From Bacillales bacterium (GTDB taxonomy: Bacteria > Bacillota_I > Bacilli_A > RF39 > UBA660): DNA of 57,882 bases. Location of the stretch: NCBI GenBank assembly GCA_016288305.1, contig JAEEYW010000001.1, positions 1-57,882 of the forward strand. The letters are read 5' to 3'. Under the pieces are notes generated by a model. That model saw nothing but the letters and a program-made list of their open reading frames with translations, did no database searches and was not told the DNA's origin. The translations under genes were made by a program, and so were the position numbers. How positions within the stretch are numbered: position 1 is the first letter of the stretch; every line of letters begins with the position of its first letter. This document shows, in pieces, positions 13,067 to 52,112 of this stretch.

Positions 13067-13068
13067 AT

Positions 13069-14269: not shown

Positions 14270-14330
14270 CTTTTAAATTATACCTAAAAAAACCTTAAAA
14301 GTCAAAGAATATTATATGTTTTTATGCATA

Positions 14331-15354: not shown

Positions 15355-15385
15355 ATTGACCTCCTATTAATTGTAAGAAAATGAG

Positions 15386-16312: not shown

Positions 16313-16818
16313 AAAGGAAAACTAGTAAGATTAATTACCCTTGTATCAAATTGATAATATATAACAGCATCAAAATTATCTTTTTTTAATGTAGTATTAA
16401 CAATTGGTATACTAATTTTTAATATAGCATTGTTACCATATTCTCTAATACTAGATTCATATACAACATCAAAATTGACTTTCTTGAATGATGTATTTTT
16501 TGGTAAATTAGTTTTAAAGGATCCAAATGTAAGTACATTATTGTTATAATCGATTTTAAACTCATCAGATGAACTATCTGTATAATTAAACTTTAAACAA
16601 TTTGTCCCACAGTTAGATAATGAGACTATTTCTTTTTCATTTAATTGTTTGTTAATATAGTTACTTATTAATGCTTGTTTATTCATAACTTCTGTTTTAA
16701 TTGCACTATTTTGATACATTTTATTTAAATTAATAATAATTTGCGTTAAAAAGATAGCAATAATAGCAACTAATGAAAGAGATGTAATTAATTCCACTAC
16801 CGTAAAACCTTTTTTCAT
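16309..16818 (-). CDS. Short pseudopilin / minor pilin (prepilin-type N-terminus)
   Basis: MKKG|FTVVELITSLSLVAIIAIFL with Glu at +5. AGGAGG RBS. Lies 11 nt downstream of the 599-aa pilin fusion. Confidence 0.8.
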   Translation of the reverse strand: MKKGFTVVELITSLSLVAIIAIFLTQIIINLNKMYQNSAIKTEVMNKQALISNYINKQLNEKEIVSLSNCGTNCLKFNYTDSSSDEFKIDYNNNVLTFGSFKTNLPKNTSFKKVNFDVVYESSIREYGNNAILKISIPIVNTTLKKDNFDAVIYYQFDTRVINLTSFPF

Positions 16819-16829
16819 AATTTACCTCC

Positions 16830-18629: not shown

Positions 18630-18647
18630 AAAATCGCCCCTTTAGTG

Positions 18648-18676
18648 TTGAAATTATCATAAATATATTATATAAT
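18648..18676 (+). promoter_or_regulatory. Sigma-A-type promoter of the pilus ATPase gene
   Basis: TTGAAA (18648-18653), a 17-nt spacer, then TATAAT (18671-18676). AAGGGG RBS before the ATG at 18726. Confidence 0.55.
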
Positions 18677-18725
18677 AATTTTGAAATAAAAACTAGTCCT
18701 AAAAGATACAAAAGGGGTTGAAATT

Positions 18726-20210
18726 ATGATTAGACAATTTGATTTCGAGAAAGTGCCTGTAGTAGAAGTAGTAAATGAAATACTAGTTGATGCAGCTAAA
18801 CGAGGAGCATCTGATATACATTTCGATCCTCTAAGCGATCATATGAAGATAAGAATACGTATTGATGGTTTACTTCAAGATTATTCTGAAGTACCTAATT
18901 CTATAAAGAAAAACTTAATTACACGTATTAAAATCATTTCTAGTATGAACATTACTGAATCAAGATTACCTCAAGATGGCGCTATTAAAACTAGATTACA
19001 AGACATTAACTTGGATTTGCGTGTTTCATGTATTCCAACTAATAATGGCGAAAAAATAGTTATCCGTATTCTTGACTACTCTATGAGTTTAGCTGGTATT
19101 GAAAATTTGGGATTCAGTGAGGAAAACTACCATAAAGTATTAAAAATGATAGAAAAACCAAACGGTATTATATTAGTAACCGGTGCTACAGGTTCCGGTA
19201 AATCAACAACGGTATATTCTATTTTACAACGTTTAAATACTGAACAAGCTAATGTTGTTACAGTTGAGGATCCAGTCGAAATGAGTATTGAAGGAATTAA
19301 CCAAATTCAAACAAATAGTGAAATTGGCTTAACATTCTCCTCTGCTCTACGCTCTATCTTACGTCAAGACCCTAACATCATAATGGTCGGAGAAATTCGT
19401 GATACTGAAACAGCTAAAATAGCCGTTAGAGCTTCAATTACTGGACACTTAGTATTATCTACTATCCATACAAATAACTCATTAAACACTATTGAACGTT
19501 TACTTGATATGGATGTTGAAAGATATTTACTTGCTTCTGCTTTAGAAGGAATTATTTCACAAGTTTTAGCTCGTAAATTATGTCCACATTGTAGAAAATT
19601 AAGAAAAACTAATCAATATGAAAAAGATTTATTTAAAAAAGTTTTAGATAAAGATGTTGATGAAATATATACTACTGAGGGATGCGAACATTGTGGTAAT
19701 GGATACTCTGGACGTATTGCTATCCATGAAGTATTGTTATTCAACCAAGATATTAGAGATGCTATTTCAGCAGGTGTTAGAAAAGATGAATTAAGAACAT
19801 TAGTATATCAATCTGGAGCTAAAACAATGCTTCAAGATGGTTTGGAAAAAGTATTATCAGGTCTTACTACTTTCGAAGAAATTATTAAGTTAATTGAACT
19901 TGAAGGAGATAATAAAGATTCTGGAGGTTTACAACTTGCTTTAAATGATGTTCAAATAGTAAAAAAATCTGAAGAAAATAATGAAGAATTAAATACCACT
20001 GTAGAAAAAAACAGTGAAGAATTAAATAATCCAGTTGAAGAAAATGGCGAAGAATTAAATACAGTTGAAGAAAATACAGAAACAAATGATACAACTGATG
20101 AAACATTTACAAATCCATTTGCTGATGAAGTAAGTAATGAGTTCAATAACCCATTTGCAACATCAACAGAAAGCTATACTAATAGTGAAGATTTATTTAA
20201 TAATTTTTAA
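18726..20210 (+). CDS. Type IV pilus / competence pseudopilus assembly ATPase (GspE/PilB/ComGA family) with acidic C-terminal extension
   Basis: Walker A GATGSGKST, Asp box VTVEDPVE, Walker B IIMVGEIRD, His box TGHLVLSTIHTN, tetracysteine CPHC...CEHC. It has no long N1 domain. About 100 extra acidic residues follow the core. Confidence 0.9.
   Translation: MIRQFDFEKVPVVEVVNEILVDAAKRGASDIHFDPLSDHMKIRIRIDGLLQDYSEVPNSIKKNLITRIKIISSMNITESRLPQDGAIKTRLQDINLDLRVSCIPTNNGEKIVIRILDYSMSLAGIENLGFSEENYHKVLKMIEKPNGIILVTGATGSGKSTTVYSILQRLNTEQANVVTVEDPVEMSIEGINQIQTNSEIGLTFSSALRSILRQDPNIIMVGEIRDTETAKIAVRASITGHLVLSTIHTNNSLNTIERLLDMDVERYLLASALEGIISQVLARKLCPHCRKLRKTNQYEKDLFKKVLDKDVDEIYTTEGCEHCGNGYSGRIAIHEVLLFNQDIRDAISAGVRKDELRTLVYQSGAKTMLQDGLEKVLSGLTTFEEIIKLIELEGDNKDSGGLQLALNDVQIVKKSEENNEELNTTVEKNSEELNNPVEENGEELNTVEENTETNDTTDETFTNPFADEVSNEFNNPFATSTESYTNSEDLFNNF
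19983..20081 (+). repeat. Three imperfect 33-nt tandem repeats inside the ATPase tail
   Basis: GAAGAATTAAATA recurs at 19983, 20016 and 20049, encoding EELNTTVEKNS / EELNNPVEENG / EELNTVEENTE. Confidence 0.8.
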
Positions 20211-21744: not shown

Positions 21745-22947
21745 TTAGAAACTAAACATCAACCAACCTGGTTTGAAAACCATTAATAAACCTATTAAGA
21801 TCATAACGATACCACCAATTAAATGAGATAATTTATTATATTTAGTTGAGATACCAGTTACTTTTAATGTCTTCATAGCGATAGTAAAAACAACAATATC
21901 ATCAATTAAGAAGAATAATATATATAATCCCATATAGAAAGCATATTGCGCTGTTGTTAAATCATTAAGCGCTAAAACTTGCGTAAATATTAATGGTAGA
22001 CCAGATGAACAAGCCAATTCAATTAAGTTAACAGAAATAGCTAATCCTACAACACCAATCAAAGCTAAAGCAAAACTTAATTCACTTTTTAGAAAACTAC
22101 TTTCATCAGTTGTAGCTTTAGCCACAATATCTCTAATTTTAGATAAGATAGATTTACGTCTTTTATTATCAACAACATGACATCCATCATCTTGTTTACG
22201 TTCCTCATAATAATTAATTAAATTAATAGTACCAACAACCAAAGCTACTAATGCTAAAGCTAATCTTATCCATGATACTTGTGTTAAAGTAACAGCCACT
22301 TTTAACCAAGCTGCCATAATAGCTAAGTAAACAAGAGCTGAAGTTATTAAGAATGTTAAACCAATCGTCCACATTTTACGTCTATTCTTCATACCAATAA
22401 TCATTGTTATTAAGAATAGTAAAACCCACATAGCACATGGATTAAAACCATCAATAAAACCTATAAGAGCGGCTACTAATGGTATAGATATTTCGGTTAA
22501 ATCAATATAATAACCAAATATTTCAATAGAATCTATAGTACCCTCTACCATTTTAATATCGGATACATCCTCATCATTTAAAATTTTAGATATAACATCT
22601 ACACTTTTAACTTCAACTTCTTTATCAATTAAATGACTAATAGCTTTTTGTGTTCCAGAACTATAGCCTATAAAATATGTATTACCAATTATTGTAAAAG
22701 GAACTTGTCGATTTGTTATATTTAAAGCTTCTTTAACTTTAGTCATAAGTAAAGCATTCTCTTCTACTTCCATAACTTCATAGGCATGTAATTCAATATT
22801 ATCTAAACTATTTAAATACTCCATTTCGGCTTGACAATGTGTACAATACTTAGAATGAAATAGATATACATCAACCTTGTCTTCAGCATCTACATTAGGC
22901 ACAAAAGCAACTAAACATAATAATATAAAAATTATAATACGTTTCAT
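21745..22947 (-). CDS. Membrane thiol-disulfide oxidoreductase: exported glutaredoxin/thioredoxin-like domain fused to a DsbD/CcdA-like transmembrane domain
   Basis: Signal peptide MKRIIIFILLCLVAFVPNVDA, CTHC redox motif, then a polytopic domain with FNPCAMWVL and a second conserved Cys (ELACSSG). Its ATG overlaps the upstream stop (ATGA). Confidence 0.7.
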   Translation of the reverse strand: MKRIIIFILLCLVAFVPNVDAEDKVDVYLFHSKYCTHCQAEMEYLNSLDNIELHAYEVMEVEENALLMTKVKEALNITNRQVPFTIIGNTYFIGYSSGTQKAISHLIDKEVEVKSVDVISKILNDEDVSDIKMVEGTIDSIEIFGYYIDLTEISIPLVAALIGFIDGFNPCAMWVLLFLITMIIGMKNRRKMWTIGLTFLITSALVYLAIMAAWLKVAVTLTQVSWIRLALALVALVVGTINLINYYEERKQDDGCHVVDNKRRKSILSKIRDIVAKATTDESSFLKSELSFALALIGVVGLAISVNLIELACSSGLPLIFTQVLALNDLTTAQYAFYMGLYILFFLIDDIVVFTIAMKTLKVTGISTKYNKLSHLIGGIVMILIGLLMVFKPGWLMFSF

Positions 22948-23198
22948 TCTATACAACCTTTCAAGAACTCTTTAAGTTCATCTTCATTTTTTTCACCTAT
23001 TAATCTTCCAACTTCTTTTTCACCATCAAAAAGAATAAAAACAGGTAAAATATCTCCAACATTATATTTAGATACAACTTCTTCATCTAAATCATAATCA
23101 TATTCAACACTTTCAATATTTAAAGCTATTTTATCCAATCTTGAACGCATAATTAAACAAGCTGGACACCACATAGCACTTACTCTTACTAATTTCAT
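22944..23198 (-). CDS. Thioredoxin-family protein
   Basis: WCPAC active site, about 84 aa from the ATG at 23198, which overlaps the cysteine desulfurase stop (ATGA). Confidence 0.75.
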   Translation of the reverse strand: MKLVRVSAMWCPACLIMRSRLDKIALNIESVEYDYDLDEEVVSKYNVGDILPVFILFDGEKEVGRLIGEKNEDELKEFLKGCIE

Positions 23199-24310
23199 TT
23201 TAATCGCAAACTTTCTACACATTCTTTAAATGTATCAATAAAATATTTAACCTCTTCAAGAGTAGTTAAACTAGATAAACTAATTCTAATACTTGATTTA
23301 GCTCTTTCCATATCATGCGTTAACGCTAAAACAGATTTAGAAAAAGTACCAGTTGAACATGCTGTTTGTGTTGAGATATAAATATCATAACTTTCTAAAG
23401 CATGCAACATTGTTTCTGGTTTAACACCTACAATACTTAAATTCAAAACATTTGGTATACAATATTCATTACTATTTATTGTAACACCCATAGGTAAGTT
23501 TTCTTTGATCATATTATTTAAATTACTAATATAAGTATATTTTTCATCTAAGTCTTCCAAAGCCAAACGCATAGCCTTAGCAAAAGAAACAATCAATGCT
23601 GTAGCTGGAGTACCACTTCTAAAACTTGTTGTACTCTTACCACCATGAATAAGTGGTTCTAAAGAAATATTTTCTTTTTTATATAATAAACCAATTCCTT
23701 TAATACCATATATTTTATGAGCAGAAAAACTAGCTAAATCAACATTAGTTAAATCAATTTTAATCTTACCTAGCGCTTGTGTCATATCAACATGGAAATA
23801 ACATTTAGGATATTGTTTTAATAATTCACCTATTTCATCGATTGGTTGAACAATACCTATTTCACTGTTAACAGCACATATACTAACTAAAATAGTATCA
23901 TCAGTTAATAATTCTTTTAATGAATCAAGATCAACAACACCATATTCATTTGTTTTAACAAACTCTACTTCAAAACCTTGCTTTTGTAAATAAGTTAAAG
24001 GTCCATATATAGAAGAATGTTCAAATTCTGTTGTTATAATTTTTTTACCTCTATTACTATAAGAACTAGCTATACCTTTAAGTACTGTATTATTAGATTC
24101 AGAAGCACCAGAAGTATATATAATTTCACTTTCTTTAATATGTAATAAATCAGCTATTTGTTTTGTAGCAGCATTTATAATACTATTAGCTTCAACGCCT
24201 AATTTATGCAATGAGTTAGGATTACCTATAAAATTATTACTTACGTCAACAAATGATTTTAAAACATCAGGATTTGTTGGTGTCGTAGCAGAATAGTCTA
24301 AATATGTCAT
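23195..24310 (-). CDS. Cysteine desulfurase (class V aminotransferase, NifS/IscS-type)
   Basis: PLP-lysine motif SFSAHKIYGIKGIG and an active-site Cys loop (TQTACSTG), 371 aa. Confidence 0.9.
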   Translation of the reverse strand: MTYLDYSATTPTNPDVLKSFVDVSNNFIGNPNSLHKLGVEANSIINAATKQIADLLHIKESEIIYTSGASESNNTVLKGIASSYSNRGKKIITTEFEHSSIYGPLTYLQKQGFEVEFVKTNEYGVVDLDSLKELLTDDTILVSICAVNSEIGIVQPIDEIGELLKQYPKCYFHVDMTQALGKIKIDLTNVDLASFSAHKIYGIKGIGLLYKKENISLEPLIHGGKSTTSFRSGTPATALIVSFAKAMRLALEDLDEKYTYISNLNNMIKENLPMGVTINSNEYCIPNVLNLSIVGVKPETMLHALESYDIYISTQTACSTGTFSKSVLALTHDMERAKSSIRISLSSLTTLEEVKYFIDTFKECVESLRLK

Positions 24311-35142: not shown

Positions 35143-35166
35143 AAAAAAAGGAGAATAATTCTCCCT
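35143..35166 (-). terminator. Rho-independent terminator of the giant pilin gene
   Basis: Minus strand GGGAGAAT..ATTCTCC followed by TTTTTTT. Confidence 0.6.
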
Positions 35167-35175
35167 TAATATGCT

Positions 35176-38100
35176 TTATGAAGCTGGAATATAACATCTT
35201 CTCTCGCCATTTACAGAATACTCTGAACCTTGTGCACAGGCTTTAATTGTTGGAACATAACATCTATATGAACCATTTGTATAATACGTTGAACCTTGTG
35301 AACATGACAAGTATTCATCAGTAGTCCAACCAGTGCACTCATAAGTCGTACAACTTATTAGCCATTCTGTCTGTTGTTTACCGGTATTAGCGCATGTACG
35401 ACCACATTCAACACCAGTATCACTACCAGGACAAACGTCTGAATATGCTCTACACTTGTCATCTATGCATGTAGAGTGCGTTGACCAACCACATGTACAC
35501 TGTGTATATTCATAACTTCCTGTTTGTCGCACAGAGGTACAATAAGTATCACCATATCTTGTATAAGCTTCACCAACATCACATATATACCCATATGATG
35601 AATTGTTTACGAAACTACCTGTTGAACATGTTGTAGTCGGCGTTGGCGCACCAATATCACATATATATCCTAATGATGAATTATACGTTAATGTTCCTGT
35701 TGTACATTTAAATGAAATGGTTGCTGCTTTATAACATCTCATGCCTGAATCATAACCAGAATAATAACTCCATCCCGATGGACACGAATACCTAGTTACA
35801 TATTCACCATTTTCAGAACAGCTTGTAGTCCAACTATATTCGTCACAAGTTCGATAATACCTAACATAACTTGTTGTATTGTAACAAGATGTCGTACTCC
35901 ACCTACAACCTCTTGAATTGTTATATGGAATACTTTCTGAGTCACAGCATTCATAAGTGCCGTCCCAATCCCATTCTCTAGATGAAACCGGATTGTTAGC
36001 TACGCATATATATCCTGTTGAGGTTTCTGTTAAAGTTCCTTCTGAACATGTAACACTTGCTCTCCATATTGCATATAGTTTAGTATTACTAGAAAAACTA
36101 TATGATGTACCAGGATTATGGGTTACTGCACTTGTGCTAGTACCATAGCCCATGAAGATATAACTTCCTTTTGTAAAATTAGTAACTCTTGGTGCTACTG
36201 AACAGCTTGTATCAGTATTATACATATTACATGTACTTGGCTCCATTGTTCCACTACCACCATTAGCGTCATAACTTACTGTTATTGTCTTATATGTTAT
36301 AGGGTACCATGTTATATTATTTGTATTTGCAGATATCATCAAACTTTTTGTTGATGTGTTATAAGCGGTATTATTACTTGTGTCATTAGCACTTACATTA
36401 TACCCTACAACAGTATAACCATCTCTTGTAATCGTAGGCGCTATTAAAGAACAATTCGTACTTTGAGCATGACCATTATATGATGCTACTATAGTACATG
36501 TTTGATCTTCTGCTGTAGATAACGTTGCACCATTAGCATTAAATTTAGCAGTATATGTTATAGAATCTTTTTTAGTTATCGCATAGTATGTCGCACTGTC
36601 ACTTACACTCTTCTCTGTATTTGCACTCCAACTACTTGTTGTTCCATTTTGTGAAGTATTAAATCCTACTACCGTTGGTGTATTACTTGATGCTGTGATT
36701 GTTGGTGATGTAATTGAACAACTTGTTGCTTCATTCCACATATCACATGACAATGTAATAGCTGTTGTTGAGGCAGAGCCGATACTAGTAGCTCCATTTG
36801 GATCAAATGTTATTGTTACTGTTTTTTTCCATATTGCATATAATGTTATGTTGCTATTTGCTGTATACGAAGCACCACTAGCATATGCTACAGTCGTTGT
36901 GTTTCTAGTTGTACCCCATCCTACAAATGTATAACCTGTTCTTGTTGGTATAGTTGAGGTTATATTAGTACTTAAATCTTGTTGTTTTGTAGTACTTGCT
37001 ATACTTCCTGTTCCACCATTTACATCATAACTAATTGTATAGCTATTTACTGCTATTGCAGTACTTGTTGCCGCATTACCAGCTCCTGTTGTTACTGTTA
37101 CTTTATATGTTCCTGCTTCTGCTGTTGTATAACTAATACCTGTTGCTCCTGTTATTGGTGTTGTTCCATTATACCATTGATAGCTATACCCTGATATCGT
37201 TGTTGATGGTGTTACTGTGGCTGTAAAGACATTCTTGTTACTTGATACAGTCTTAGCTACGCTTACTGTTGGTACAGTTTTATCTACCTTGATTGTATAT
37301 GTTCTTGTACTACTATTTCCAGCTTTATCTGTTGTTGTGACAGTGACATTAGTTCCAGAAGTATTACTTGTGATTGATGTAGCACTTATAGTTGTTGAAC
37401 CATGGCCTGATAATGTATCTGTTCCATTTACAGCTGCTAACGTTACATTAGATTTATACCAACTATTTGTTCCTAATGTACCTGTTATTGTTGCTGTACC
37501 TGCTGTTGGAGCAGTCTTATCTAGTTTATATGCATCACTACATATTACTTCACTTGTTTGATTATAATTATCAGTTGCCTGTACACAGATTCTATTATTA
37601 CTACTTTCTGTACTTATTAAACGTGTTGCCGTAGTATTTGTTACAACAGAACCATTTGTTGGATTACATGTATCTGTTGTGGCTGTACATACTTTGAATT
37701 CTTTTATACCATGTCCTGACTGGTCATATACCTCAATGTCAACAACAAAATCATTTCTTGCCCAGCCATTACTATTTATAGCATTTTCATAACCATAATG
37801 TAACTTAAATGTAACGATTGGCGCGCCGGATGATACTGTTACTTTTCTTGTAACTGTTTTAACGTTACCAGCATTATCTTTTGCTGTATATACAACATTA
37901 GTTACACCAGTCTTTGATGTATCTACTGTCTCTGGTGAATGCGTACATGTATCTACTCCACTTGTTGCATCACTACATGTTACACCTGCATCTAGGTTAA
38001 CTGTAGCTCCTACATTCACATTTATATCGGCTATACCATTAATTTCTGGTTTTGTTTTATCAATCTTAAGTGTAGAACTACATATTTTATCACTTACGTT

Positions 38101-41100
38101 ACCAACGTTATCGTATACGATGGTGCATACTTGTGTTGAAGCAACATCTGTTATAGTTATTGCAGTTGATGCAGTTTCTAATGTCGTAGGTGTACAGCCT
38201 GTTCCTTGACACCATTTGTATTCTTTAACGCCTGAGCCAACATCTGATGGTGTCATAGTAACTGCAACATCACTTGTATACCATCCATTACTTCCTGTAG
38301 TACCATCAATATTGAATGACATAGTAGGTTTTATTGCATCTCTCGTAATAGCATACCATGTTTTACCTGTATTACTTGATGATAATGTTATTGTTTTATT
38401 TGTTGCATTGTATGCACTATTTGAAGATGTACTTGCTGAATTTGTATCAAATCCTATAATTGTATAACCACTTCTTGTAATTGTTGGAGCTGTAATGACA
38501 CATGTTGTTGCTTGCGCTTCTCCATTATACGTAGCTACAATTGTACAACTTTGATCACTTGTTGATGATAATGTTGCTCCATTGGCATTAAATTTAGCTA
38601 TATATGTCAACGCACTTTTTGTTGTGATTGCATAATATGCTACATTTCCACTTATACTCTTAGCTGTATTATGATTCCATGATGATGTTGTTGCAGTAGC
38701 TGATGTTCCATATCCAACTACCGTTGGTGTATTACTTGGTGCTATGATTGTTGGTGATGTAATTGAGCAACTTGTTGCTTGCGCTGTTCCATTATATGAC
38801 TCAGCTATTGTACAACTTTGTGTAATACTTGCTTCTGTTGATGCACTTCCACCATTAGGTGTTTGACTTGCTGCACCATTCTTATAGAATGTTACAGTAT
38901 ATGTCACAGCACCTTTTTTAGTTGTTGCATCATATTCGCCATTATCGCTTACTTGTAATTCTGTTTCTGGCGTCCAAGTTTGGGGACCTGACCCTGATTT
39001 TTTAGTCCATCCAACTACGGTTGGTGTATTACTTGAAGCAGTAATCTTAGGTGATGTAATCTTACAATTTGTCGTTGCATTCCACATTTCACATGATAGT
39101 GAAATTGGTATTGTTGAAGAAGAACCGATACTAGATGCACCATTTGGATTAAATGTTATTGTTACTGTCTTCTTCCATATTGCATATAGTGTTGTTCCAC
39201 TATTAGCTGTATATGAAGCACCACTTGCATATGATACTGTTGTTGTTGTAGCACTAGTACCCCATCCCATAAATGTATATCCTGTTCTTGTTGGTACTGC
39301 TGTTGTTATATTAGTACTTAAATCTTGGATTTTTGTAGTTGTTCCTACTGTTCCAGATCCACCATTTACATTATATTCTATTGCGTAACTTCCTATTGTT
39401 ATCGCATTACTTGTTACTGATAGACCTGCTTGCGTTGATACTACTAATTTATATGTTCCTGCTTGTGTTGTCGCATAATTACTACTTGTTGCTCCTGATA
39501 TTTCTATATTATTTCTATACCATTGGTACTTATATCCTGATACAGTTGTTACAGGAGTTACTGTTGATGTTAATACATTTTGATTATTTGATACACTCTT
39601 TGCTATTGTTGCTGATGGTGCGTTTTTGTCTACGCCAATTGTATATAATCTTGTTGCCACATTTCCTGCATTATCTGTCGTTGTTACAGTAACGACCGTA
39701 CCTGATGTATTGTTTGTTATACTTGATGGGCTTACAGTTGTTGAAGCATGTCCTGATAAGCTATCAGATCCATTTATTGCATTTATTGTTACGTTAGAAG
39801 TATACCAATCATTTGTACCGCTAGTACCGGTAAACGTTGCTGTACCTGCTGTTGGGGCTGTCTTATCCAGTTTATATGCATCACTACATATAATAGGACT
39901 TGTCTGATTATAATTATCAGTTGCCTGTACACAAATTCTATTATTTCCGCTTTCTGTGCTTATTAAACGTGTTGTGGTAGTACTTGTCACAATAGAACCG
40001 TTTGTTGGATTACATGTATCTGTTGTCGCTGTACATACTTTGAATTCTTTTATACCATGTCCTGAATTATCTGTTACATTTATTGTTACATAGAAATCAT
40101 TTCTAGCCCATCCATTACTATTTATTGCCCCGGCTGCTGCTGTATAACTTACTGATGGTGCATCTGTTTCTATCGTCACTTTTCTTGTAACTGTTTTAAC
40201 GTTACCAGCATTATCTGTCGCTGTATATACAATATCATGCACTCCTGCTTTTGATGTATCAACTGTTTTAGGATTATAATCTAATTCATATATACCACTA
40301 AGTCCATCTTGAGCAGATGCTTCTAAATTAACTGTGCCATTTTTAGCCACAACTAAATCTCCTATACCTGTAATGATAGGTTTAACTGTATCTACTTTAA
40401 TTGTGCTACTACATAGCTTTTCACTATTATTTCCTGCTTTATCATATGCTACAGAACATACTTGTGTTCCTAAACCATCTGTAATAGAGACTGTCTTTTT
40501 GCCTGTCTCTTTATTTGTAGGATCGCAATTATATCCCGTGCACCATAGATAATAATCTACTCCTGACTCTAAATCAGTAGTTTCAATTTCGACATATACG
40601 TTACTTGTATACCAATTATTATTTCCTTTTGTTCCTGTAATATTATAATTCAAATTTGGTTGTGTTTTATCTACTTTAATTGTATATTCTCTTGTTGATG
40701 TGTTTCCAGCTTTATCTGTTGATGTTACTGTTACTGTAGTACCATTAGTATTATTCGTAATAGAAGCTGTATCAACTATTGTTGTGCTATGTCCTGATAA
40801 AGCATCTGATCCATTGATAGTAGCTATATTGACATTCGATAAATACCAATCACCTATGCCTTTTGTGCCAGTTATTCTGATTGTACCTGCTGTTGGAGCA
40901 GTTTTATCTAATTTATATGCATCACTACATATTACTTCACTTTTTTGCCCATAATTATCTTCTGCTTGGACACAAACTCTATTGTTATTACTTTCTGTAC
41001 TTATTAAACGTGTTGCCGTAGTATTTGTTATTACTGATCCATTTGTTGGATTACATGTATCAGTTGTTGCTGTACACAATCTAAATTCTTTAATACCATG

Positions 41101-42105
41101 TCCTGAATTATCTTTGACATTGACATTTACATAAAAGTTTTCATTAGCCCAACCATTACTATTGATTATGTTATCTGCTATAACAAAATTAACTGTTGGA
41201 GCTTCAGCTGAAACATTAACTTTTCTAGTCAAACTCTTAGTATTTCCAGCTTTATCTACAGCTGTATAAGTAACTGTATGAACACCTGCTTTAGATGTAT
41301 CAATACTTGTTGGTGTATGTGTGAAAGAAGATATTCCACTCGTAACATCTTGAGCACTAGCATTTAGATTTACGCTTCCACCTTTATTTACAACAATATC
41401 ACCAATTCCTGTAATTTCTGGTTTTACAGTATCTATCTTGATTGTATCTGTACATATTTTATTACTATTGTTAACAGCCATATCATATGCTATAACACAT
41501 ACTTGTGTTCCTACATTATCTGTAAGTGATATTGTCTTGTTTCCTGTTTCTCTATTAACCGGTTCACAATCCATACCCGTACACCATGTATAAAAATTTA
41601 ACCCCGATTCATTATCAACTACACTTATTTCAACATATGCAGATGTGGTATACCAATTATTGTTACCTAAAACACCTGTTACATTATAAGTTACAATAGG
41701 AGCATTATTATCAACACCTAAATAACCTAATGTGCAGTCATCTGTTTTTTCTAGATCACCATAAAAATTTTTAACATAGCATGAACCATCTAATCTAATA
41801 GATAATGCTGTTAAACCTTTACTATTTGCATATAATTCACCATCAGCTTGAGGTTTATTATCAATACTAACATTGTCATAAATGTTATTTAATTGTTTAA
41901 CATCCTCTTTTTTATATGGATCAATCATACTTTCAGCATAATAATTTTCTGCTGCCCTTATCAAATTAGTAGCCGTCAGCATATTAGCCCTATCTCTTAA
42001 TGTTGCAATAACATTAATAGTTATAGGTGTAGCTATTAAAGCCACTACTGCTAGTATAATAACTACTGTTATTAATTCAATTAATGTAAGTCCCTTTTTT
42101 TTCAT
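35176..42105 (-). CDS. Giant modular type IV pilin-like surface protein (prepilin-type N-terminus plus about 2,150-aa adhesin-like passenger)
   Basis: The probable start is the ATG at 42105 (GGTGA RBS; the track ORF extends to 42141). MKKKG|LTLIELITVVIILAVVALIATPI has Glu at +5. A small pilin head is closed by a Cys pair. Then come three supermodules of about 350 aa of beta-sandwich/Ig-like domains (NNWYTSNVYVEI..D.ESG, DUF5011/HYR-like GIGD..V..G..VNL.A.AQD..SGI....VDTSKAGVH.V.YTA.D.AGN), Listeria-Bacteroides (Flg_new-like) repeats (Y.I.Y.VNGG.G...PTRTGYTF.GWGT...LYAIWKK) and a 28-Cys tail. There is no LPXTG motif and no C-terminal TM segment. Confidence 0.85.
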   Translation of the reverse strand: MKKKGLTLIELITVVIILAVVALIATPITINVIATLRDRANMLTATNLIRAAENYYAESMIDPYKKEDVKQLNNIYDNVSIDNKPQADGELYANSKGLTALSIRLDGSCYVKNFYGDLEKTDDCTLGYLGVDNNAPIVTYNVTGVLGNNNWYTTSAYVEISVVDNESGLNFYTWCTGMDCEPVNRETGNKTISLTDNVGTQVCVIAYDMAVNNSNKICTDTIKIDTVKPEITGIGDIVVNKGGSVNLNASAQDVTSGISSFTHTPTSIDTSKAGVHTVTYTAVDKAGNTKSLTRKVNVSAEAPTVNFVIADNIINSNGWANENFYVNVNVKDNSGHGIKEFRLCTATTDTCNPTNGSVITNTTATRLISTESNNNRVCVQAEDNYGQKSEVICSDAYKLDKTAPTAGTIRITGTKGIGDWYLSNVNIATINGSDALSGHSTTIVDTASITNNTNGTTVTVTSTDKAGNTSTREYTIKVDKTQPNLNYNITGTKGNNNWYTSNVYVEIETTDLESGVDYYLWCTGYNCDPTNKETGKKTVSITDGLGTQVCSVAYDKAGNNSEKLCSSTIKVDTVKPIITGIGDLVVAKNGTVNLEASAQDGLSGIYELDYNPKTVDTSKAGVHDIVYTATDNAGNVKTVTRKVTIETDAPSVSYTAAAGAINSNGWARNDFYVTINVTDNSGHGIKEFKVCTATTDTCNPTNGSIVTSTTTTRLISTESGNNRICVQATDNYNQTSPIICSDAYKLDKTAPTAGTATFTGTSGTNDWYTSNVTINAINGSDSLSGHASTTVSPSSITNNTSGTVVTVTTTDNAGNVATRLYTIGVDKNAPSATIAKSVSNNQNVLTSTVTPVTTVSGYKYQWYRNNIEISGATSSNYATTQAGTYKLVVSTQAGLSVTSNAITIGSYAIEYNVNGGSGTVGTTTKIQDLSTNITTAVPTRTGYTFMGWGTSATTTTVSYASGASYTANSGTTLYAIWKKTVTITFNPNGASSIGSSSTIPISLSCEMWNATTNCKITSPKITASSNTPTVVGWTKKSGSGPQTWTPETELQVSDNGEYDATTKKGAVTYTVTFYKNGAASQTPNGGSASTEASITQSCTIAESYNGTAQATSCSITSPTIIAPSNTPTVVGYGTSATATTSSWNHNTAKSISGNVAYYAITTKSALTYIAKFNANGATLSSTSDQSCTIVATYNGEAQATTCVITAPTITRSGYTIIGFDTNSASTSSNSAYNATNKTITLSSSNTGKTWYAITRDAIKPTMSFNIDGTTGSNGWYTSDVAVTMTPSDVGSGVKEYKWCQGTGCTPTTLETASTAITITDVASTQVCTIVYDNVGNVSDKICSSTLKIDKTKPEINGIADINVNVGATVNLDAGVTCSDATSGVDTCTHSPETVDTSKTGVTNVVYTAKDNAGNVKTVTRKVTVSSGAPIVTFKLHYGYENAINSNGWARNDFVVDIEVYDQSGHGIKEFKVCTATTDTCNPTNGSVVTNTTATRLISTESSNNRICVQATDNYNQTSEVICSDAYKLDKTAPTAGTATITGTLGTNSWYKSNVTLAAVNGTDTLSGHGSTTISATSITSNTSGTNVTVTTTDKAGNSSTRTYTIKVDKTVPTVSVAKTVSSNKNVFTATVTPSTTISGYSYQWYNGTTPITGATGISYTTAEAGTYKVTVTTGAGNAATSTAIAVNSYTISYDVNGGTGSIASTTKQQDLSTNITSTIPTRTGYTFVGWGTTRNTTTVAYASGASYTANSNITLYAIWKKTVTITFDPNGATSIGSASTTAITLSCDMWNEATSCSITSPTITASSNTPTVVGFNTSQNGTTSSWSANTEKSVSDSATYYAITKKDSITYTAKFNANGATLSTAEDQTCTIVASYNGHAQSTNCSLIAPTITRDGYTVVGYNVSANDTSNNTAYNTSTKSLMISANTNNITWYPITYKTITVSYDANGGSGTMEPSTCNMYNTDTSCSVAPRVTNFTKGSYIFMGYGTSTSAVTHNPGTSYSFSSNTKLYAIWRASVTCSEGTLTETSTGYICVANNPVSSREWDWDGTYECCDSESIPYNNSRGCRWSTTSCYNTTSYVRYYRTCDEYSWTTSCSENGEYVTRYSCPSGWSYYSGYDSGMRCYKAATISFKCTTGTLTYNSSLGYICDIGAPTPTTTCSTGSFVNNSSYGYICDVGEAYTRYGDTYCTSVRQTGSYEYTQCTCGWSTHSTCIDDKCRAYSDVCPGSDTGVECGRTCANTGKQQTEWLISCTTYECTGWTTDEYLSCSQGSTYYTNGSYRCYVPTIKACAQGSEYSVNGERRCYIPAS
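36060..37269 (-). repeat. Intragenic block B3 (Ig-like SGYSYQWY domain, Flg_new and Cys-pair modules)
   Basis: Collinear with B2 (for example 36945-37045 against 39290-39390). Confidence 0.75.
37270..38335 (-). repeat. Intragenic supermodule repeat A3
   Basis: Runs from AIKPTMSFNIDG to KVDKTVP. Its landmark lies about 2,345 nt from the A2 copy. Confidence 0.8.
38336..39615 (-). repeat. Intragenic block B2 (Ig-like SGYKYQWY domain, Flg_new repeat, three Cys-pair Flg_new-like modules)
   Basis: Collinear with B3. Together A2+B2 and A3+B3 form a tandem duplication of about 2.35 kb. Confidence 0.75.
39616..40656 (-). repeat. Intragenic supermodule repeat A2
   Basis: Runs from NLNYNITG to GVDKNAP. 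Its KLDKTAPTAGT landmark lies about 1,045 nt from the A1 copy. Confidence 0.8.
40657..41715 (-). repeat. Intragenic supermodule repeat A1 (about 1.05 kb)
   Basis: Runs from VDNNAPIVTYNVTG to KVDKTQP. Shares long stretches of roughly 85-90 percent nucleotide identity (by eye) with A2 and A3, for example around 40940-41120. Confidence 0.8.
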
Positions 42106-42131: not shown

Positions 42132-42160
42132 AGTATACCATTTTTTTTAATTAATTTCAA
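42132..42160 (-). promoter_or_regulatory. Strong sigma-A-type promoter of the giant pilin gene
   Basis: Minus strand: TTGAAA (42160-42155), a 17-nt spacer, then TATACT (42137-42132) preceded by TGG (extended -10-like). GGTGATAATATG follows. Confidence 0.6.
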
Positions 42161-42182
42161 TAAAAAAGGGATGTACTCCCTA
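42161..42182 (-). terminator. Short terminator hairpin after the 479-aa pilin gene
   Basis: Minus strand AGGGA-GTACA-TCCCT followed by TTTTTT. The stem is only 5 bp and overlaps the stop codon. Confidence 0.45.
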
Positions 42183-43619
42183 TTTTGTTCTAAGTATACG
42201 TGATCCTATAGAATTAAGTCCAACTGAACCAGTGTCCAAAGCATAATAGTATAGACCATTAGAATTACCATAATCCCATCTACCACCAACTAGAGTAATA
42301 TAACTTCCACCTGCTTGACGATAGCCATCATTAATAACACTACCAGTTTCGGTTGGAAAACTAAATAATGGATATCTATCATCGTAACCTAATGTCTTGA
42401 TAGTTCCATTTGCTTTAGCGTTAATATAACTTAACATCTTGTAACATCCAGTGTATGTATCAACGTTGTATTCCTCTGGTTCAGTACATACATAAGCCAC
42501 ATTATTTTTAAGATTAATACCATCAATAAATTGCCATATATTTCCAAAAATATCTTCCATACCTCTATATATCATACTATGTTTTCCATCATTATTTAAT
42601 GTTCCTGATTTCATTCCTAAACTATCACATCCGCCAGATGGAAGAATAGTTGAAGATGAAGAAACACCTAAACCTAATTTGGCCTGTGAATTATAATCAG
42701 CATATTCAACTAAATATAATATTTGAATTAAGAAATAATGATAATCTAATTGACCAAAACCTTTATCAATAGCTTCTGACTTAGTTCTAAACCATGTCAT
42801 CGTTTGATTAGCCGCTGGCGCAACACCACTCATTGAACGAATTTTATTATCTGCATAGCTTGATGTATATCTTCCTACGGAAAAAGCGTCTGATTTAGTA
42901 TATCCACTAATTGGAAACTCAGATATAGATATATATTCGTAACCATTAGATTGCCATCTTTTATAATAGAATATTGGTATACGCGTTAAAACATCACCTG
43001 TACTACCATCAGCATGATATTTAGCTTCAGAAATATCCGCTACATCTTGATTTAAATCTCTATCATATACATAACTTTTAATAGCACTCCATGGATAAAT
43101 ATTATCAAAATCATTTACAACACTACTTCCATCTTTAGTAGCATTAGCTACTTTACCTACGGCATTGTCATATCTTTCCCAAGCAGAAGAAGTAGAAGTT
43201 AAACTACGTCTAATAGTATATTTAACATTGATATCTGCAGAACTTTTAATACTATAATCAGTGCCATCATAATATACTAAACGATCGTTATTTTTAATAA
43301 GTAAACGCACTACTTTATTACTTTTATAATCAACATCTAATACTTCAGTATTACCTAAATGTACCATTGAAGCAACATTATCTTTAGTCATATTTTCGCA
43401 ATCAATAGTCGTATCAGAATTCATTTTATCTTTCATATTAAAATTTAATAATTTACAATAGTCATCAATATCCCTAACTAAATTTTTAGCTTCATCTAAA
43501 GCTACTGAATCCTTTGAATCATCTATAATATCAATAACTATTGGTGTAGCTACTAAAGCTATAACACCAAGTATAACAATAACAGCTAATAATTCTACTA
43601 AAGTAAACGCCCTTTTCAT
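42180..43619 (-). CDS. Modular pilin: prepilin-type N-terminus fused to a lectin-like module (paralogue of 16830-18629)
   Basis: MKRA|FTLVELLAVIVILGVIALVATPI (Ala at -1, Glu at +5). C55/C74 pair in the head. C-terminal module with YRGMEDIFGNIWQFIDGIN and GGRW...GL...IGSRIL motifs. Confidence 0.8.
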   Translation of the reverse strand: MKRAFTLVELLAVIVILGVIALVATPIVIDIIDDSKDSVALDEAKNLVRDIDDYCKLLNFNMKDKMNSDTTIDCENMTKDNVASMVHLGNTEVLDVDYKSNKVVRLLIKNNDRLVYYDGTDYSIKSSADINVKYTIRRSLTSTSSAWERYDNAVGKVANATKDGSSVVNDFDNIYPWSAIKSYVYDRDLNQDVADISEAKYHADGSTGDVLTRIPIFYYKRWQSNGYEYISISEFPISGYTKSDAFSVGRYTSSYADNKIRSMSGVAPAANQTMTWFRTKSEAIDKGFGQLDYHYFLIQILYLVEYADYNSQAKLGLGVSSSSTILPSGGCDSLGMKSGTLNNDGKHSMIYRGMEDIFGNIWQFIDGINLKNNVAYVCTEPEEYNVDTYTGCYKMLSYINAKANGTIKTLGYDDRYPLFSFPTETGSVINDGYRQAGGSYITLVGGRWDYGNSNGLYYYALDTGSVGLNSIGSRILRTK

Positions 43620-44240: not shown

Positions 44241-44274
44241 AAAAAAGAAGTGTCAACCTTTTTTAGTTGACACT
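44241..44274 (-). terminator. Rho-independent terminator of cotE
   Basis: AGTGTCAAC/GTTGACACT stem followed by a T-rich run on the minus strand. Confidence 0.55.
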
Positions 44275-44794
44275 ATATATAATTCTCATCAACTTTGTCG
44301 ATTTCTTCTAAAGTTTCATCATTTATATCAGTTATATCGTCCCAAGGTTCCTCATCTTCTTCAATAGCAATCTTCATTTTACTTTCCCCCACTACCTCAA
44401 CACCTAACTCTTTATTTATTTCAAAATTAATACTTCCATCTTCAATCTTAACATCAGTACAATTAGGTTGATTTAATGAACGAACAATTATCTCAGTATC
44501 ACTATCGATAGCATCCTCTTTTATCTTAACATTAAATAAATCATTGTAAGTTATATTTTCACTTACAACATTTGTTTTGGAATTATTATCATATGAATAC
44601 CATACATTAACATCAAATGATCCATCAACGCCTATCTTATTGCCATTTTTATATCCTTTAAACTTATGATTTATAACCCAACATCCTAAAACAGTTGTAG
44701 GAGTTTGTTCAGGTTTAATTGTATACTTATCTTTAAATGACTTTTTTCCTTTACCAACTATAGCTTTCGTAACTATCTCTTTATATAATGCCAT
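44273..44794 (-). CDS. cotE: Outer spore coat morphogenetic protein CotE
   Basis: From the ATG at 44794 (GAGGTGA RBS): MALYKEIVTKAIVGKGKK...LGCWVINHKF...DVNVWYSYDNNSKTNVV...NQPNC...VEVVGESK, plus an acidic tail. This matches my recollection of B. subtilis CotE. It sits next to miaB as in Bacillus. Confidence 0.8.
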   Translation of the reverse strand: MALYKEIVTKAIVGKGKKSFKDKYTIKPEQTPTTVLGCWVINHKFKGYKNGNKIGVDGSFDVNVWYSYDNNSKTNVVSENITYNDLFNVKIKEDAIDSDTEIIVRSLNQPNCTDVKIEDGSINFEINKELGVEVVGESKMKIAIEEDEEPWDDITDINDETLEEIDKVDENYI

Positions 44795-44812
44795 TATATC
44801 ACCTCTCAATTT

Positions 44813-44891
44813 AATGTATGCTATTGCATTAAAAAAGTGCACAAAAAAAAGGACTTAAGTCATTAATTACAAAATCCTATTTCATTGTATG
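44813..44891 (-). promoter_or_regulatory. Candidate sporulation-sigma (sigma-E/sigma-K type) -10 elements upstream of cotE
   Basis: Minus-strand CATACATT (44820-44813) and CATACAAT (44891-44884) fit the mother-cell -10 consensus CATACAnT. The -35 elements are unclear. Confidence 0.3.
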
Positions 44892-49281: not shown

Positions 49282-50109
49282 TTATATCGTATCTATGACA
49301 TCTTTATAAAAATTATAATTTATAGCTATACCAAGAACTAAAATATATGACACATAATATATTAATAACATTAGGATAATAATATTAGCTAAAGAACCAT
49401 ACAATATATCATAACGCGCAATATTTGTAACATAAAATGAATATACACTAGTTCCAAACATAATAGCTATCGTTGAAAATAACGTTCCAGCATTAACATA
49501 AGCACTTTTAATTTTAATATCTGGCGCTAAAGTATAAATGATTTTAATAACCATAAAAATAACAATAAAAGCAAAAACCAATTTAATAACAGTAATCAAT
49601 GGATAGTTATTATTAATAAATGTACCCAAAGGTCCAAAAGCCAATATTTTAGTTAATATAAAACTACCAAAAGCCATAATTACTAAAACCACTAAAAATA
49701 AAAATAGCAACCAGAAATTCATAAAAATAGATTTAACTTTTCTTGATATATAACCTGTACCTTTTATTTTATATAATATATCAGATATGTATATCAAACA
49801 TCCCATACCATTACTAGCAATATATAAACCTAAAATAACAAATAAAACATTATTAGTGGTAAAACTACTAGATAAAAACGGTGATAACAAATCATTCACA
49901 CCAGCTGGTAACGCTACGCCAAAAAAGTTAGCTAAGCGATCTGTTGAAAGTGAAAATAACGAAGCTAAAAGACCAAACAACATAATTAAAGGAGCAATAG
50001 AAATAACTAAAAAAAAGGCTAGATTACCAGGAAGTACAAATAACTCCTGTAATCTTATAGCACGCCTTAAACTGCTTATAAGCCTTTTTAATTTAACCAT
50101 AGAGATCAC
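49282..50109 (-). CDS. YihY/BrkB-family membrane protein
   Basis: Six-TM profile with N-terminal LAFFLVISIAPL and C-terminal GSLANIIILMLLIYY patterns typical of the family. Confidence 0.7.
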   Translation of the reverse strand: MISMVKLKRLISSLRRAIRLQELFVLPGNLAFFLVISIAPLIMLFGLLASLFSLSTDRLANFFGVALPAGVNDLLSPFLSSSFTTNNVLFVILGLYIASNGMGCLIYISDILYKIKGTGYISRKVKSIFMNFWLLFLFLVVLVIMAFGSFILTKILAFGPLGTFINNNYPLITVIKLVFAFIVIFMVIKIIYTLAPDIKIKSAYVNAGTLFSTIAIMFGTSVYSFYVTNIARYDILYGSLANIIILMLLIYYVSYILVLGIAINYNFYKDVIDTI

Positions 50110-52112
50110 TCCCTAATTTCTTTGTTATTACGCATATCGATTGTAGCTTCATTAATAGCATCATCAATAGTCTTAATATCATCACTAATCATACTATATC
50201 CTAAAGCAGCACCAAAACCATGTTTAATTTCTTTTAATTCTTTAGCTAGTTTTCGCATATATGTTATAACTTGTTTTTCATCGTAACCAACTAAATAAAT
50301 TAAGAATTCATTACCATTAGTTCTAATAATTTCACTATGCTCAACTTGATTAACAATCAAAACATTAGCCGCTTGATTAATAACCAAATCACCTTCAGCA
50401 TGACCATAATTATCATTGATGTAAGCAACATTGTTTAAATCAACAATAACGATAGCTTGCGGATAAGTTTCATTCTTATCCCATTTTTCAATAGCATCAT
50501 TTAAATATGTTCTATTCTTTAAAGATGTTAAAGTATCAATATAGCGTAATTTATCTTCTTTAGATAAATTATTTCTTTTTGGTTTTATTTTTAAAATACC
50601 CAATACAAATAATAATATACCTACAACTACACCTAAAACAATAGCTATATTTTTTAATATGATAGGTGTTTTGTTAACTAAGATAAGATTATTCAATCCT
50701 ACATTAACATAATGATCTGTATCAGTAAAAGTAATATAGAAATCAAACATATCTCTAAACAATTTATTATCAGCTATATCACGAATAACAAAAGCATAAT
50801 CTTCAACATCAAATTGATAAGCTATAACATAATTTTGAAGAAGGTTTTTATAATAATTAAAACTTAAATTATCAATAGCTACAACATCGTCACTATCGAT
50901 TCTAGCTAAGATATCATCAATAGTAGCATATGCTTTAACATTAACACCACTACCGCTAAATACATTAGCTAAAGTACTATTATCGATAACATAAACCTCA
51001 TCTAATGATCTAATAGAATCAATAATTTTATTATTTGATGAATGTTTTAATAAGTAAACACTATTAGCATATAACTTATTAGTATTGTAAACATCCATAG
51101 CATATTCTTTAGAAGCATTTATGCCATAAAAGATATCAATCTTATTAGCATTAAAAGCTTCTTGTAAATCACTAATATTATGGTATTCTTTATAACTTAT
51201 TTCCGCATTTGTTAATTTAGAAAAGGAAGCTAACAATTCATAATTAATACCTGTTAGTTTACCATCTACTAAATAATCATATGGTGCATTAGAAATAAAA
51301 CCATAATTATATCTTTTACTTCTAAATTTAACAGCATCCGAATCATTTATACCATTGAAACTAAAATAGTTTTTAGATAAAAATTTATTATATGATTTAT
51401 CATAGTTTTTACTTTGCCATTTATTATAATATTTGGTTAAAATAGAATTTAATTTTTCTTCTTTACCTAAAGTTAAAACAAAGTATTTTTTGTAATCATT
51501 AATATGATAAGCTATCTTATATTTACCATCAATAATACTCTTTAAATTAACCGTTTTTAAAACTACAACAGCATCTAATTTAGTATCTTCAGCACTGAAA
51601 GAATTAAATAAATACGCTATATCATCATATGTTTTATATGTTACATCAGCTTTATATAAATATGTATTAACGGCATCTAAATCACTACTTAAAACACCTA
51701 TTACTAAATCATCTAATTCATCGATAGATAAATAAGTTTGGTCTTTACTTAAAATAACATAATTATCTGTATATAGTAATATATCATCACTACCTACTTC
51801 ATCAACCATTTTAAAAGCATATTCACTTTTAACTTCATCACCTATTTTATATGATATTTTATTAAATGATAAATTGGTATCTGTTTTTAAAGCATTTAAA
51901 AAATCCAATATTAAACCTTCACCATTATAACTTAAAATTGGTATGTCATTAATAATTGACATATCAATCAATTTATTTTTATTACTTTCAATCCATTGTT
52001 TTTCAAATAAATTCAAGGTAGAAACTTTATCTTCTCTAGTTAAAAAGATATATCCAGATATACCAACTAAAAAAAGAACAATAGCTGCAATAATAAAGCC
52101 TTTATTCTTCAC
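50106..52112 (-). CDS. Membrane receptor-like protein: extracytoplasmic solute-binding-like domains plus a degenerate GGDEF domain
   Basis: N-terminal TM segment, an external region of about 470 aa, a second TM segment, then a GGDEF-fold segment (DTLTSLKNRTYL, VDLNNVAYINDNYGHAEGD). The signature reads NGNEF (50304-50318) instead of GG(D/E)EF. Confidence 0.75.
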   Translation of the reverse strand: MKNKGFIIAAIVLFLVGISGYIFLTREDKVSTLNLFEKQWIESNKNKLIDMSIINDIPILSYNGEGLILDFLNALKTDTNLSFNKISYKIGDEVKSEYAFKMVDEVGSDDILLYTDNYVILSKDQTYLSIDELDDLVIGVLSSDLDAVNTYLYKADVTYKTYDDIAYLFNSFSAEDTKLDAVVVLKTVNLKSIIDGKYKIAYHINDYKKYFVLTLGKEEKLNSILTKYYNKWQSKNYDKSYNKFLSKNYFSFNGINDSDAVKFRSKRYNYGFISNAPYDYLVDGKLTGINYELLASFSKLTNAEISYKEYHNISDLQEAFNANKIDIFYGINASKEYAMDVYNTNKLYANSVYLLKHSSNNKIIDSIRSLDEVYVIDNSTLANVFSGSGVNVKAYATIDDILARIDSDDVVAIDNLSFNYYKNLLQNYVIAYQFDVEDYAFVIRDIADNKLFRDMFDFYITFTDTDHYVNVGLNNLILVNKTPIILKNIAIVLGVVVGILLFVLGILKIKPKRNNLSKEDKLRYIDTLTSLKNRTYLNDAIEKWDKNETYPQAIVIVDLNNVAYINDNYGHAEGDLVINQAANVLIVNQVEHSEIIRTNGNEFLIYLVGYDEKQVITYMRKLAKELKEIKHGFGAALGYSMISDDIKTIDDAINEATIDMRNNKEIRE

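Follow-up and report, generated by a model that had tools for sequence, protein, structure and literature searches.

The closest described relatives of the protein reported here are the modular pilins, a class defined from Streptococcus sanguinis PilB. Raynaud et al. (2021; PMC8179133) counted 1,219 of these proteins in 264 architectures, and their definition comprises (i) an N-terminal IPR012902 signature, (ii) at least one domain that is not specific to type IV filament biology, and (iii) a short linker to the pilin module. An 860-residue protein from Falkowbacteria is presented in that study as the "most extreme case," and its Dataset S1 lists the combinations IPR012902-IPR013378 (Listeria-Bacteroides repeat, 1 to 5 copies) and IPR012902-IPR032179 (DUF5011, 1 or 2 copies) (PMC8179133). 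We analyzed a stretch of 57,882 bp that is one whole contig (JAEEYW010000001.1 of the Bacillales bacterium assembly GCA_016288305.1), referred to below as the window. Its minus strand carries at 35176-42105 a gene for a giant protein of 2,309 amino acids (aa), in which a class III (prepilin) signal and a pilin module precede a passenger of 22 domains. An earlier note on this DNA had read the large open reading frame (ORF) as a modular pilin some ten times larger than the known ones. The ORF is real, with a frame that stays open over 6.9 kb although the genome is AT rich, and the assignment to the pilin family stands; the factor of ten was overstated, since the protein has about 5 times the mass of S. 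sanguinis PilB and is about 2.7 times as long as the 860-residue extreme case.

Judged by its sequence and predicted fold, the giant protein belongs to the type IV pilin family and has the design of a modular pilin, and we filed it there because its features at both levels are those of the class: residues 1-125 form the pilin module, followed by a short linker and then by domains foreign to filaments. Further points in favor of this assignment, which makes it a pilin-family protein far larger than the characterized examples, are a filament assembly ATPase and four other prepilin-type genes on the same contig and a giant gene within a minor-pilin operon of a close relative. As to its role, we lean, if only slightly, toward a protein that is processed like a prepilin and that a type IV machinery displays in low copy number, probably at the filament tip. 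Like S. sanguinis PilB, with its vWA module, and PilC, with its lectin module, the giant protein comes from a monoderm host, has a class III signal with Glu5, and carries a small pilin module short-linked to a functional module (PMC8179133; PMC9934059). Unlike these proteins, which consist of one grafted module (about 50 kDa in total) and are encoded in a complete pil locus, it comprises about 22 stalk domains and a tail (244 kDa) and is encoded outside such a locus; filament incorporation and binding were demonstrated for the S. sanguinis proteins, and a pilus-presented adhesin role, shown for PilB, is here proposed. Modular pilins of Dataset S1 likewise join an N_methyl signal to Flg_new or DUF5011, and the kind is therefore already known and was catalogued, uncharacterized, in 2021. 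Whereas those entries have few domains, the giant protein combines both domain types. New here are (i) the scale, with 22 domains in 2,309 aa and relatives of up to 2,840 aa, (ii) the build of a fibrillar adhesin on a pilin carrier, and (iii) a shared head with swappable passengers.

The gene comprises 2,309 codons and a stop codon (35176-35178) in an ORF of 6,930 nt, and an identical protein, P0001, is present in the public collection, although exact look-ups with either start yielded no record. The longest mechanical frame reaches 42141 and opens with MVYYYY; we rejected this start, an ATG within a run of A that is not preceded by a Shine-Dalgarno-like sequence, and homologues begin with MKKKG. 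The ATG at 42105 was chosen because GGTGAT precedes it, because the upstream ATG has no ribosome-binding site, and because all homologues open at MKK(K)G. The predicted mature protein amounts to 244 kDa and has a pI (isoelectric point) of 5.2 and a Thr content of 17.6%. The possibility of a chimeric assembly was addressed with an independent metagenome assembly (GCA_016295295.1), which reproduces both ends of the gene. One of its contigs matches window positions 46233-39282 at 99.99% identity in the order miaB-cotE-rpsP-khpA-479-aa gene, and then covers codons 1-941 of the giant gene. A second contig matches 37847-30397 at 99.84% and contains the last 889 codons, followed by uppS-cdsA-rseP. 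Both contigs stop within a large internal duplication, at 39282 and 37847, so that 37848-39281 (1,434 nt) is the sole part without support from the second, short-read assembly. These breaks, along with a paralogue of 84% DNA identity in the same sample, are what could be adduced for an assembly chimera of repeats or an unexpressed, decaying pseudogene. However, repeats within the gene share only 70-74% DNA identity, and no stretch of 45 nt or more recurs exactly in it, so that a repeat-driven chimera is unlikely. In addition, the junctions are reproduced at 99.8-99.99%, the frame is open throughout, and full-length homologues of up to 2,840 aa are found in other samples. The gene is thus real and intact, and we consider an artifact or a decaying gene highly improbable.

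The base composition of the gene also agrees with that of its surroundings. Its G+C content (GC) is 0.34, compared with about 0.27, and its third-position GC (GC3) is 0.14, equal to that of the neighboring genes. The excess lies wholly at codon position 2 and is due to a composition rich in Thr, Ser, Gly, and Ala. An origin by horizontal transfer is therefore unsupported, and the same holds for the proposal that the gene had been inserted into housekeeping blocks. The general location given for it, between rpsP-khpA and uppS-cdsA-rseP, is correct, except that a 479-aa prepilin-type gene, overlooked earlier, intervenes next to khpA. The gene had also been credited with a promoter of its own and with bracketing terminators. 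The intergenic region (42132-42181, minus strand) does contain a weak terminator-like hairpin (42181-42167) and a promoter-like site, TTGAAA-17-TATACT with a TG element (42160-42132), and a terminator-like hairpin with a 9-bp stem and a T run lies 3' of the gene (35147-35167, minus strand). These signals are consensus matches only, and promoter-like sites in the window are not enriched over shuffled sequences.

The class III signal (aa 1-27; 42025-42105, minus strand) reads MKKKG followed by LTLIELITVVIILAVVALIATP, with cleavage predicted before L6, Gly at position -1, Glu10 at position +5, and a hydrophobic alpha1-N segment. The +1 residue is Leu, which is rarer there than the Phe found in the closest homologue, P0002. 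Residues 6-27 are the sole hydrophobic segment of the protein, with the Kyte-Doolittle maximum at 6-24. The NCBIfam prepilin model TIGR02532 matched with 21.2 bits, above its cutoff of 16.3, and the Pfam family N_methyl (PF07963) with 20.5 bits, marginally under its gathering score of 21.2. The earlier proposal of a prepilin signal with a hydrophobic helix of about 20 residues was hence borne out. The pilin module (aa 1-125; 41731-42105, minus strand) consists of the alpha1 helix, a short helix, and a 4-stranded sheet and contains the Cys pair noted before as C121/C136; that numbering derived from the longer start, and the residues are Cys109 and Cys124. An AlphaFold2 model of the head, built on an alignment of 27 sequences, has a mean pLDDT (predicted local distance difference test score) of 88.8, with helices at 8-59 (52 residues) and 63-70 and strands at 89-93, 99-105, 108-112, and 119-121, and the predicted topology is that of the classical pilin "lollipop." A comparison of the head profile with all PDB sequences retrieved only type IV pilins and pseudopilins, namely, the Geobacter pilin (Geopilin; 6e-10), S. 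sanguinis PilE1 (1e-9), MshA, PilA, and GspG; these matches span alpha1 only.

The conservation of the head extends beyond the signal. Residues Y55, P86, G97, C109, and K112 are invariant or nearly so, C109 strictly, and C124 does not vary among the six closest heads and occurs in most members of the 27-sequence alignment. When the head was searched separately from the tail, as had been suggested, in a profile search that covered all of 1.84 billion representatives, 72 proteins reached E<=1e-30 and 4,294 reached E<=1e-10. All of the 149 best head homologues have the signal G-[FL]-T-L-[IV]-E and align across the full head including the sheet, most of them with the Cys pair. Their lengths range from complete small pilins of 131-139 aa up to 1,496 aa (median, 511 aa), and the giant window protein is the longest in the list of best head matches. 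This head is thus common to hundreds of proteins of 130 to 2,840 aa, both stand-alone pilins and fusions with passengers of very different lengths. Since the globular head is conserved, and not merely the hydrophobic helix, it probably functions as a pilin module and was not simply taken over for its signal.

A low-confidence linker of about 10 residues (approximately 126-136) joins the head to a passenger of about 2,180 aa, the layout of which was established by self-comparison, iterated internal profiles, Pfam, and NCBIfam. The passenger contains 22 domains, namely, 12 Ig/OmpL47-type domains, 2 Ig-like spacers, and 8 Listeria-Bacteroides (Flg_new) repeats, followed by a tail of 290 aa; the matching Pfam and NCBIfam models are Bact_surface_Ig-like, HYR, OmpL47-type, DUF5011, and Flg_new. 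All parts lie on the minus strand. Supermodule 1 (aa 131-477, 40675-41715; aa 136-483 by self-comparison) consists of an OmpL47-type barrel, a DUF5011/HYR-type Ig-like domain, a further OmpL47-type domain, and an Ig-like domain, and supermodule 2 (aa 478-830, 39616-40674; aa 483-830 by self-comparison) is 56-72% identical to it. They are followed by an Ig-like spacer of about 80 aa (aa 831-906) with four Flg_new repeats (aa 907-1252; together 38329-39615), by the four domains of supermodule 3 (aa 1260-1612; 37270-38328), and by a second spacer of about 80 aa (aa 1613-1688) with another four Flg_new repeats (aa 1689-2012; together 36049-37269). Residues 478-1258 and 1260-2040 constitute a single large duplication. 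The tail (aa 2020-2309; 35179-36048) holds 28 of the 68 Cys residues of the protein and contains several short Cys-bracketed hairpin motifs, four of which fit the pattern C-x2-G-x8-12-aromatic-x-C, as well as the motif CPSGWSYYSG, which also terminates two shorter head-family proteins. An AlphaFold2 model of the tail from a 3-sequence alignment was unusable (pLDDT, 45.9). The three four-domain supermodules, the Listeria-Bacteroides repeats, and the Cys-rich tail of the earlier note were all confirmed by this analysis. So was the lack of other anchors: scans with sequence patterns and domain models found no LPXTG motif, no C-terminal hydrophobic segment, and no wall-anchor domain in the giant protein, which leaves the pilin module as the sole candidate anchor.

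Three further groups of surface proteins resemble parts of this architecture. (i) The type IVb minor pilins CofB, of enterotoxigenic Escherichia coli (ETEC), and TcpB, of Vibrio cholerae, compared here by architecture, likewise attach beta-repeat or beta-sandwich domains to a pilin module. They differ in being from diderm hosts, in forming trimeric tip complexes, and in being encoded within the pilus operon, and they are much smaller, at about 500 aa. (ii) PilY1/PilC tip adhesins of type IVa pili are also large modular adhesins held at the pilus tip by a carrier part; however, PilY1 is not a pilin but docks by a beta-propeller on minor pilins, and the giant protein has no such domain. (iii) With the fibrillar adhesins of Firmicutes (Monzon et al., PMC8286594, PMC9210967) it shares a very long, Thr/Ser-rich, tandem beta-sandwich stalk that includes Flg_new, termed a stalk domain in the survey of these proteins (PMC9210967), and a distal nonstalk region. 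The size and the 22 tandem beta-sandwich or Flg_new domains are thus those of a fibrillar adhesin. In contrast, the anchor is not, since the C-terminal LPXTG motif or wall-binding domain is replaced by an N-terminal pilin module, which would be noncanonical in that class; the polarity would therefore be reversed, with the C terminus as the distal end. The survey text does not mention the N_methyl motif or a type IV pilin anchor (PMC9210967).

In a different reading, the protein is a fibrillar adhesin that is not polymerized at all: the head would do no more than export the protein and hold its N terminus in the membrane, whether or not processed by the peptidase, the stalk would span the wall on its own, and the prepilin N terminus would in this lineage be a general tag for surface display. 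With 22 domains, the stalk could probably traverse a Gram-positive wall unaided by a pilus. In the fibrillar-adhesin survey, a recognized anchor is missing from about half of the positive training set (PMC9210967). There is, moreover, an archaeal precedent: some surface proteins, among them the sugar-binding proteins of the Sulfolobus bindosome, are large and carry a class III signal although they are not filament components (PMC3047682). These archaeal proteins differ in having a dedicated Bas system and are not known to have a conserved pilin globular head. An anchor would need neither a conserved globular head nor one common to stand-alone small pilins, and the strict conservation of Gly-1 and Glu+5 likewise argues for more than anchoring.

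The genomic link between the giant protein and filament biology comes from an ATPase gene and its counterpart in a close relative. The window encodes a PilB/GspE-type type IV filament assembly ATPase of 494 aa (18726-20210, plus strand; PF00437, E 8e-127), which lacks the usual N-terminal domain and has a C-terminal acidic low-complexity tail of about 95 aa with NPF motifs. Among species-representative genomes, its nearest relatives are in metagenome-assembled genomes (MAGs) labeled "Mollicutes bacterium" (74%) and "uncultured Bacilli bacterium" (70%), followed at about 50% by a Bacillaceae PilB, an Acholeplasmataceae MAG, and Izimoplasma. The Acholeplasmataceae (L019) and Izimoplasma (L024) loci, from sister lineages, contain complete operons in the order pilB, pilC, a pilin gene, a putative PilD-like gene, and then presumed pilMNO, along with divergent minor pilins; the PilD-like and pilMNO assignments there are based on gene order and sequence features. 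At a further locus, L140, the ATPase is 82% identical to that of the window, and the gene order is the same, with iscS-trx-...-queH-uppP-ATPase on one side of the pilin genes and ylbJ-ylbL on the other. In the window, the genes diverging from the ATPase gene encode a 599-aa pilin-like protein (16830-18629, minus strand) and a 169-aa minor-pilin-like protein (16309-16818, minus strand). The divergent operon of L140 (7269-14530) comprises (i) a 163-aa gene orthologous to the N terminus of the 599-aa protein, (ii) a 173-aa gene orthologous to that for the 169-aa protein, and (iii) the gene for P0013, a giant pilin of 1,509 aa that is 41% identical to the supermodules of the window giant. Because P0013 is encoded by the third gene of this operon, a close relative has such a giant within the minor-pilin operon of a type IV filament. 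The first operon gene of the window has gained a phage-like domain, and the L140 operon ends in a giant; the modular slot is therefore variable at this locus.

The ATPase also bears on the alternative that the giant protein is secreted or shed by means of a type II-secretion-like or Com-type pseudopilus, a short one on which its head would dock, and acts in the wall or the medium, for example, in matrix formation or in the binding of polymers or DNA. Its scores hardly separate the families (489 bits for GspE and 483 bits for PilB, both under the equivalog cutoffs), the missing N-terminal domain is compatible with such a system, and the small pilin-like neighbors in the window give weak matches of the ComGC/GE/GF type. 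The ComGA model, however, scores 268 bits against a cutoff of 300, there is no comG-type operon on the contig, and the passenger is made of stalk domains typical of adhesins, with no enzyme or DNA-binding domain found. We therefore regard a role on a pseudopilus as improbable.

Full-length searches retrieved at least 45 protein clusters that share this class III signal, with lengths of 1,272-2,840 aa. The closest relative, P0002, has 2,748 aa and lacks the Cys-rich tail; it comes from the same metagenome and shows 79% aa identity and 84% DNA identity over 5.6 kb. Its gene (L002, 2617-10863; GCA_016295295.1 contig JAEEGK010012219.1) lies between der/engA and rnfCDGEA, which makes this a second locus, either of a paralogue in the same genome or of a sister-strain version. 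Other giant homologues are lone genes among housekeeping genes, beside lepA, parAB, or polC. Sporulation genes occur in the loci of giant homologues (SpoIIID, GerQ, and SSPI) as well as in the window (CotE, 44273-44842, and SpoIIM, 7428-8027, both on the minus strand), and the hosts are therefore walled spore formers. These spore-former genes are present in the window although the nearest genome record of the ATPase is labeled "Mollicutes bacterium." A metagenome scan with the head alignment, which used generic GFTLIEL patterns and returned mostly unrelated pilins, was informative for L088, L090, L093, and scattered genes. In L090, five prepilin-type modular proteins of 540-1,117 aa are encoded in tandem (5044-18767), and low-GC metagenome contigs (L093, L124, L108, L130, and L094, besides L090) carry such genes in tandem or singly after valS, rplQ, or dnaJ, with no pilus machinery nearby. 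These contigs suggest that class III signal proteins have multiplied greatly in the lineages concerned.

This scattering of prepilin-type genes beside housekeeping genes, including the five of the window and the giant homologues between der and rnfC and next to lepA or parA, fits a surface-display route without polymerization, and no pilC or pilD was found near any of the scattered genes in the loci analyzed. It speaks for a head that only exports and anchors, and it counts against a pilus-presented protein. Several other observations likewise count against presentation by a pilus. Neither a prepilin peptidase (A24/PilD) nor a platform protein (PilC/T2SSF) nor PilMNO was detected on the 57.9-kb contig or in the loci of its closest relatives (L006, L007, and L140), in all of which the ATPase is an orphan with no adjoining pilC, pilD, or pilMNO, and the contig contains no small major pilin. 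A Foldseek comparison of the head model with the PDB gave no match at E<=0.001, small helix-dominated models being difficult for this program. No recognized adhesive domain was found in the giant protein, the tail (2020-2309) having no match in Pfam, NCBIfam, or PHROGs. To our knowledge, no pilin this large has been shown to enter a filament. Against these points stand, in addition to the conserved head, the giant homologue within the ATPase-linked minor-pilin operon of L140 and the intact assembly ATPase, which is kept across the lineage at 70-82% identity. We judge the anchor-only alternative, the main rival, to be rather unlikely.

Presentation by a pilus, the reading that we favor, would proceed as follows. 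The class III signal would insert the protein into the membrane, and a prepilin peptidase would cleave after Gly5 and methylate Leu6, leaving the mature 244-kDa protein held in the membrane by its alpha1-N helix. The PilB-type ATPase machinery would then build it into the filament as a minor subunit of low abundance, with the tip as the most likely site, because the bulky passenger could not pack into the filament body. The string of 22 beta-sandwich domains, thin and some tens of nanometers long by a rough estimate from the domain count, would thread through the wall, and the Cys-rich C-terminal end would be presented to a ligand as the distal, adhesive end.

Of the four other prepilin-type genes of the window, the one directly upstream of the giant gene (42180-43619, minus strand) encodes a protein of 479 aa that opens with a prepilin signal of its own (MKRA followed by FTLVELL) and ends in a phage-tail-protein-like domain of about 350 aa. 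The gene has a promoter-like site of its own upstream and a weak terminator-like hairpin downstream. Its C-terminal domain matches phrog_5302, annotated "tail protein" (E 4e-47), and its homologues with 50-59% identity bear the name "tail collar fiber protein [Caudoviricetes]" or contain Mtd_N or phage tail-collar domains. The 599-aa protein next to the ATPase gene is a paralogue, up to 65% identical over the shared C-terminal domain. The C-terminal ends of the 479-aa and 599-aa proteins (…GGRWDYGNSNGLYYYALDTGSVGLNSIGSRILR versus …DGYWANYSVAGLWCWYLNYASSYSAVDVGSRLIR) presumably resemble the variable region of a diversity-generating-retroelement target; targeting by such an element failed as an explanation on this contig, with no template repeat and no reverse transcriptase motif in the window. 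The remaining gene (12269-13072, minus strand) encodes a 267-aa modular pilin with C-terminal Ig-like domains of the DUF5011/HYR type; it is located immediately downstream of smc (minus strand) and shares 4 nt with the end of a 175-aa ORF that is not annotated (13069-13596). No Rfam elements or riboswitches were found upstream of the pilin genes.

Two other neighborhoods of the window were noted. Close to the ATPase gene, at 21745-23222 (minus strand), a small thioredoxin gene follows that of a 403-aa membrane protein whose N-terminal domain (CxxC) is glutaredoxin/thioredoxin-like, and the pair is kept beside the ATPase locus of L140. It may be an extracytoplasmic thiol-disulfide system of relevance to a surface protein with 68 Cys residues. 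The gene at 50106-52112 (minus strand) encodes a GGDEF diguanylate cyclase that is membrane bound and contains a periplasmic-binding-type domain. In some Firmicutes, cyclic di-GMP (c-di-GMP) controls type IV pili; the window yielded no c-di-GMP riboswitch.

Modular pilins have been put forward as the means by which type IV filaments, simple as they are, gain many functions, and those studied experimentally carry a single module (about 50 kDa). If a 244-kDa protein with a 22-domain passenger is indeed presented by a pilus, it would set a new upper bound for what the assembly machinery and the Gram-positive wall can accommodate. Pilus-tip adhesins and fibrillar adhesins, hitherto separate classes, would then merge, and the N-terminal pilin module would join the known adhesin anchors. 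On a broader and more tentative view, to which we give somewhat less than even credence, the type IV pilus may be a general display scaffold in this uncultured low-GC Bacilli lineage, in which a conserved head of about 125 aa is combined with interchangeable passengers (none, phage-receptor-binding-protein-like lectin domains, or stalks of 244-300 kDa) and subunits of 2,300-2,840 aa, roughly threefold the length of the extreme case of 2021, would be polymerized into or onto the filament and pushed through the Gram-positive wall. Were the head only an anchor, the giant protein would be a bacterial parallel to the archaeal class III signals on nonfilament proteins. A shared head with swappable passengers, including domains that resemble phage tail proteins, would in addition offer a natural system for the shuffling of domains between phages and host surfaces.

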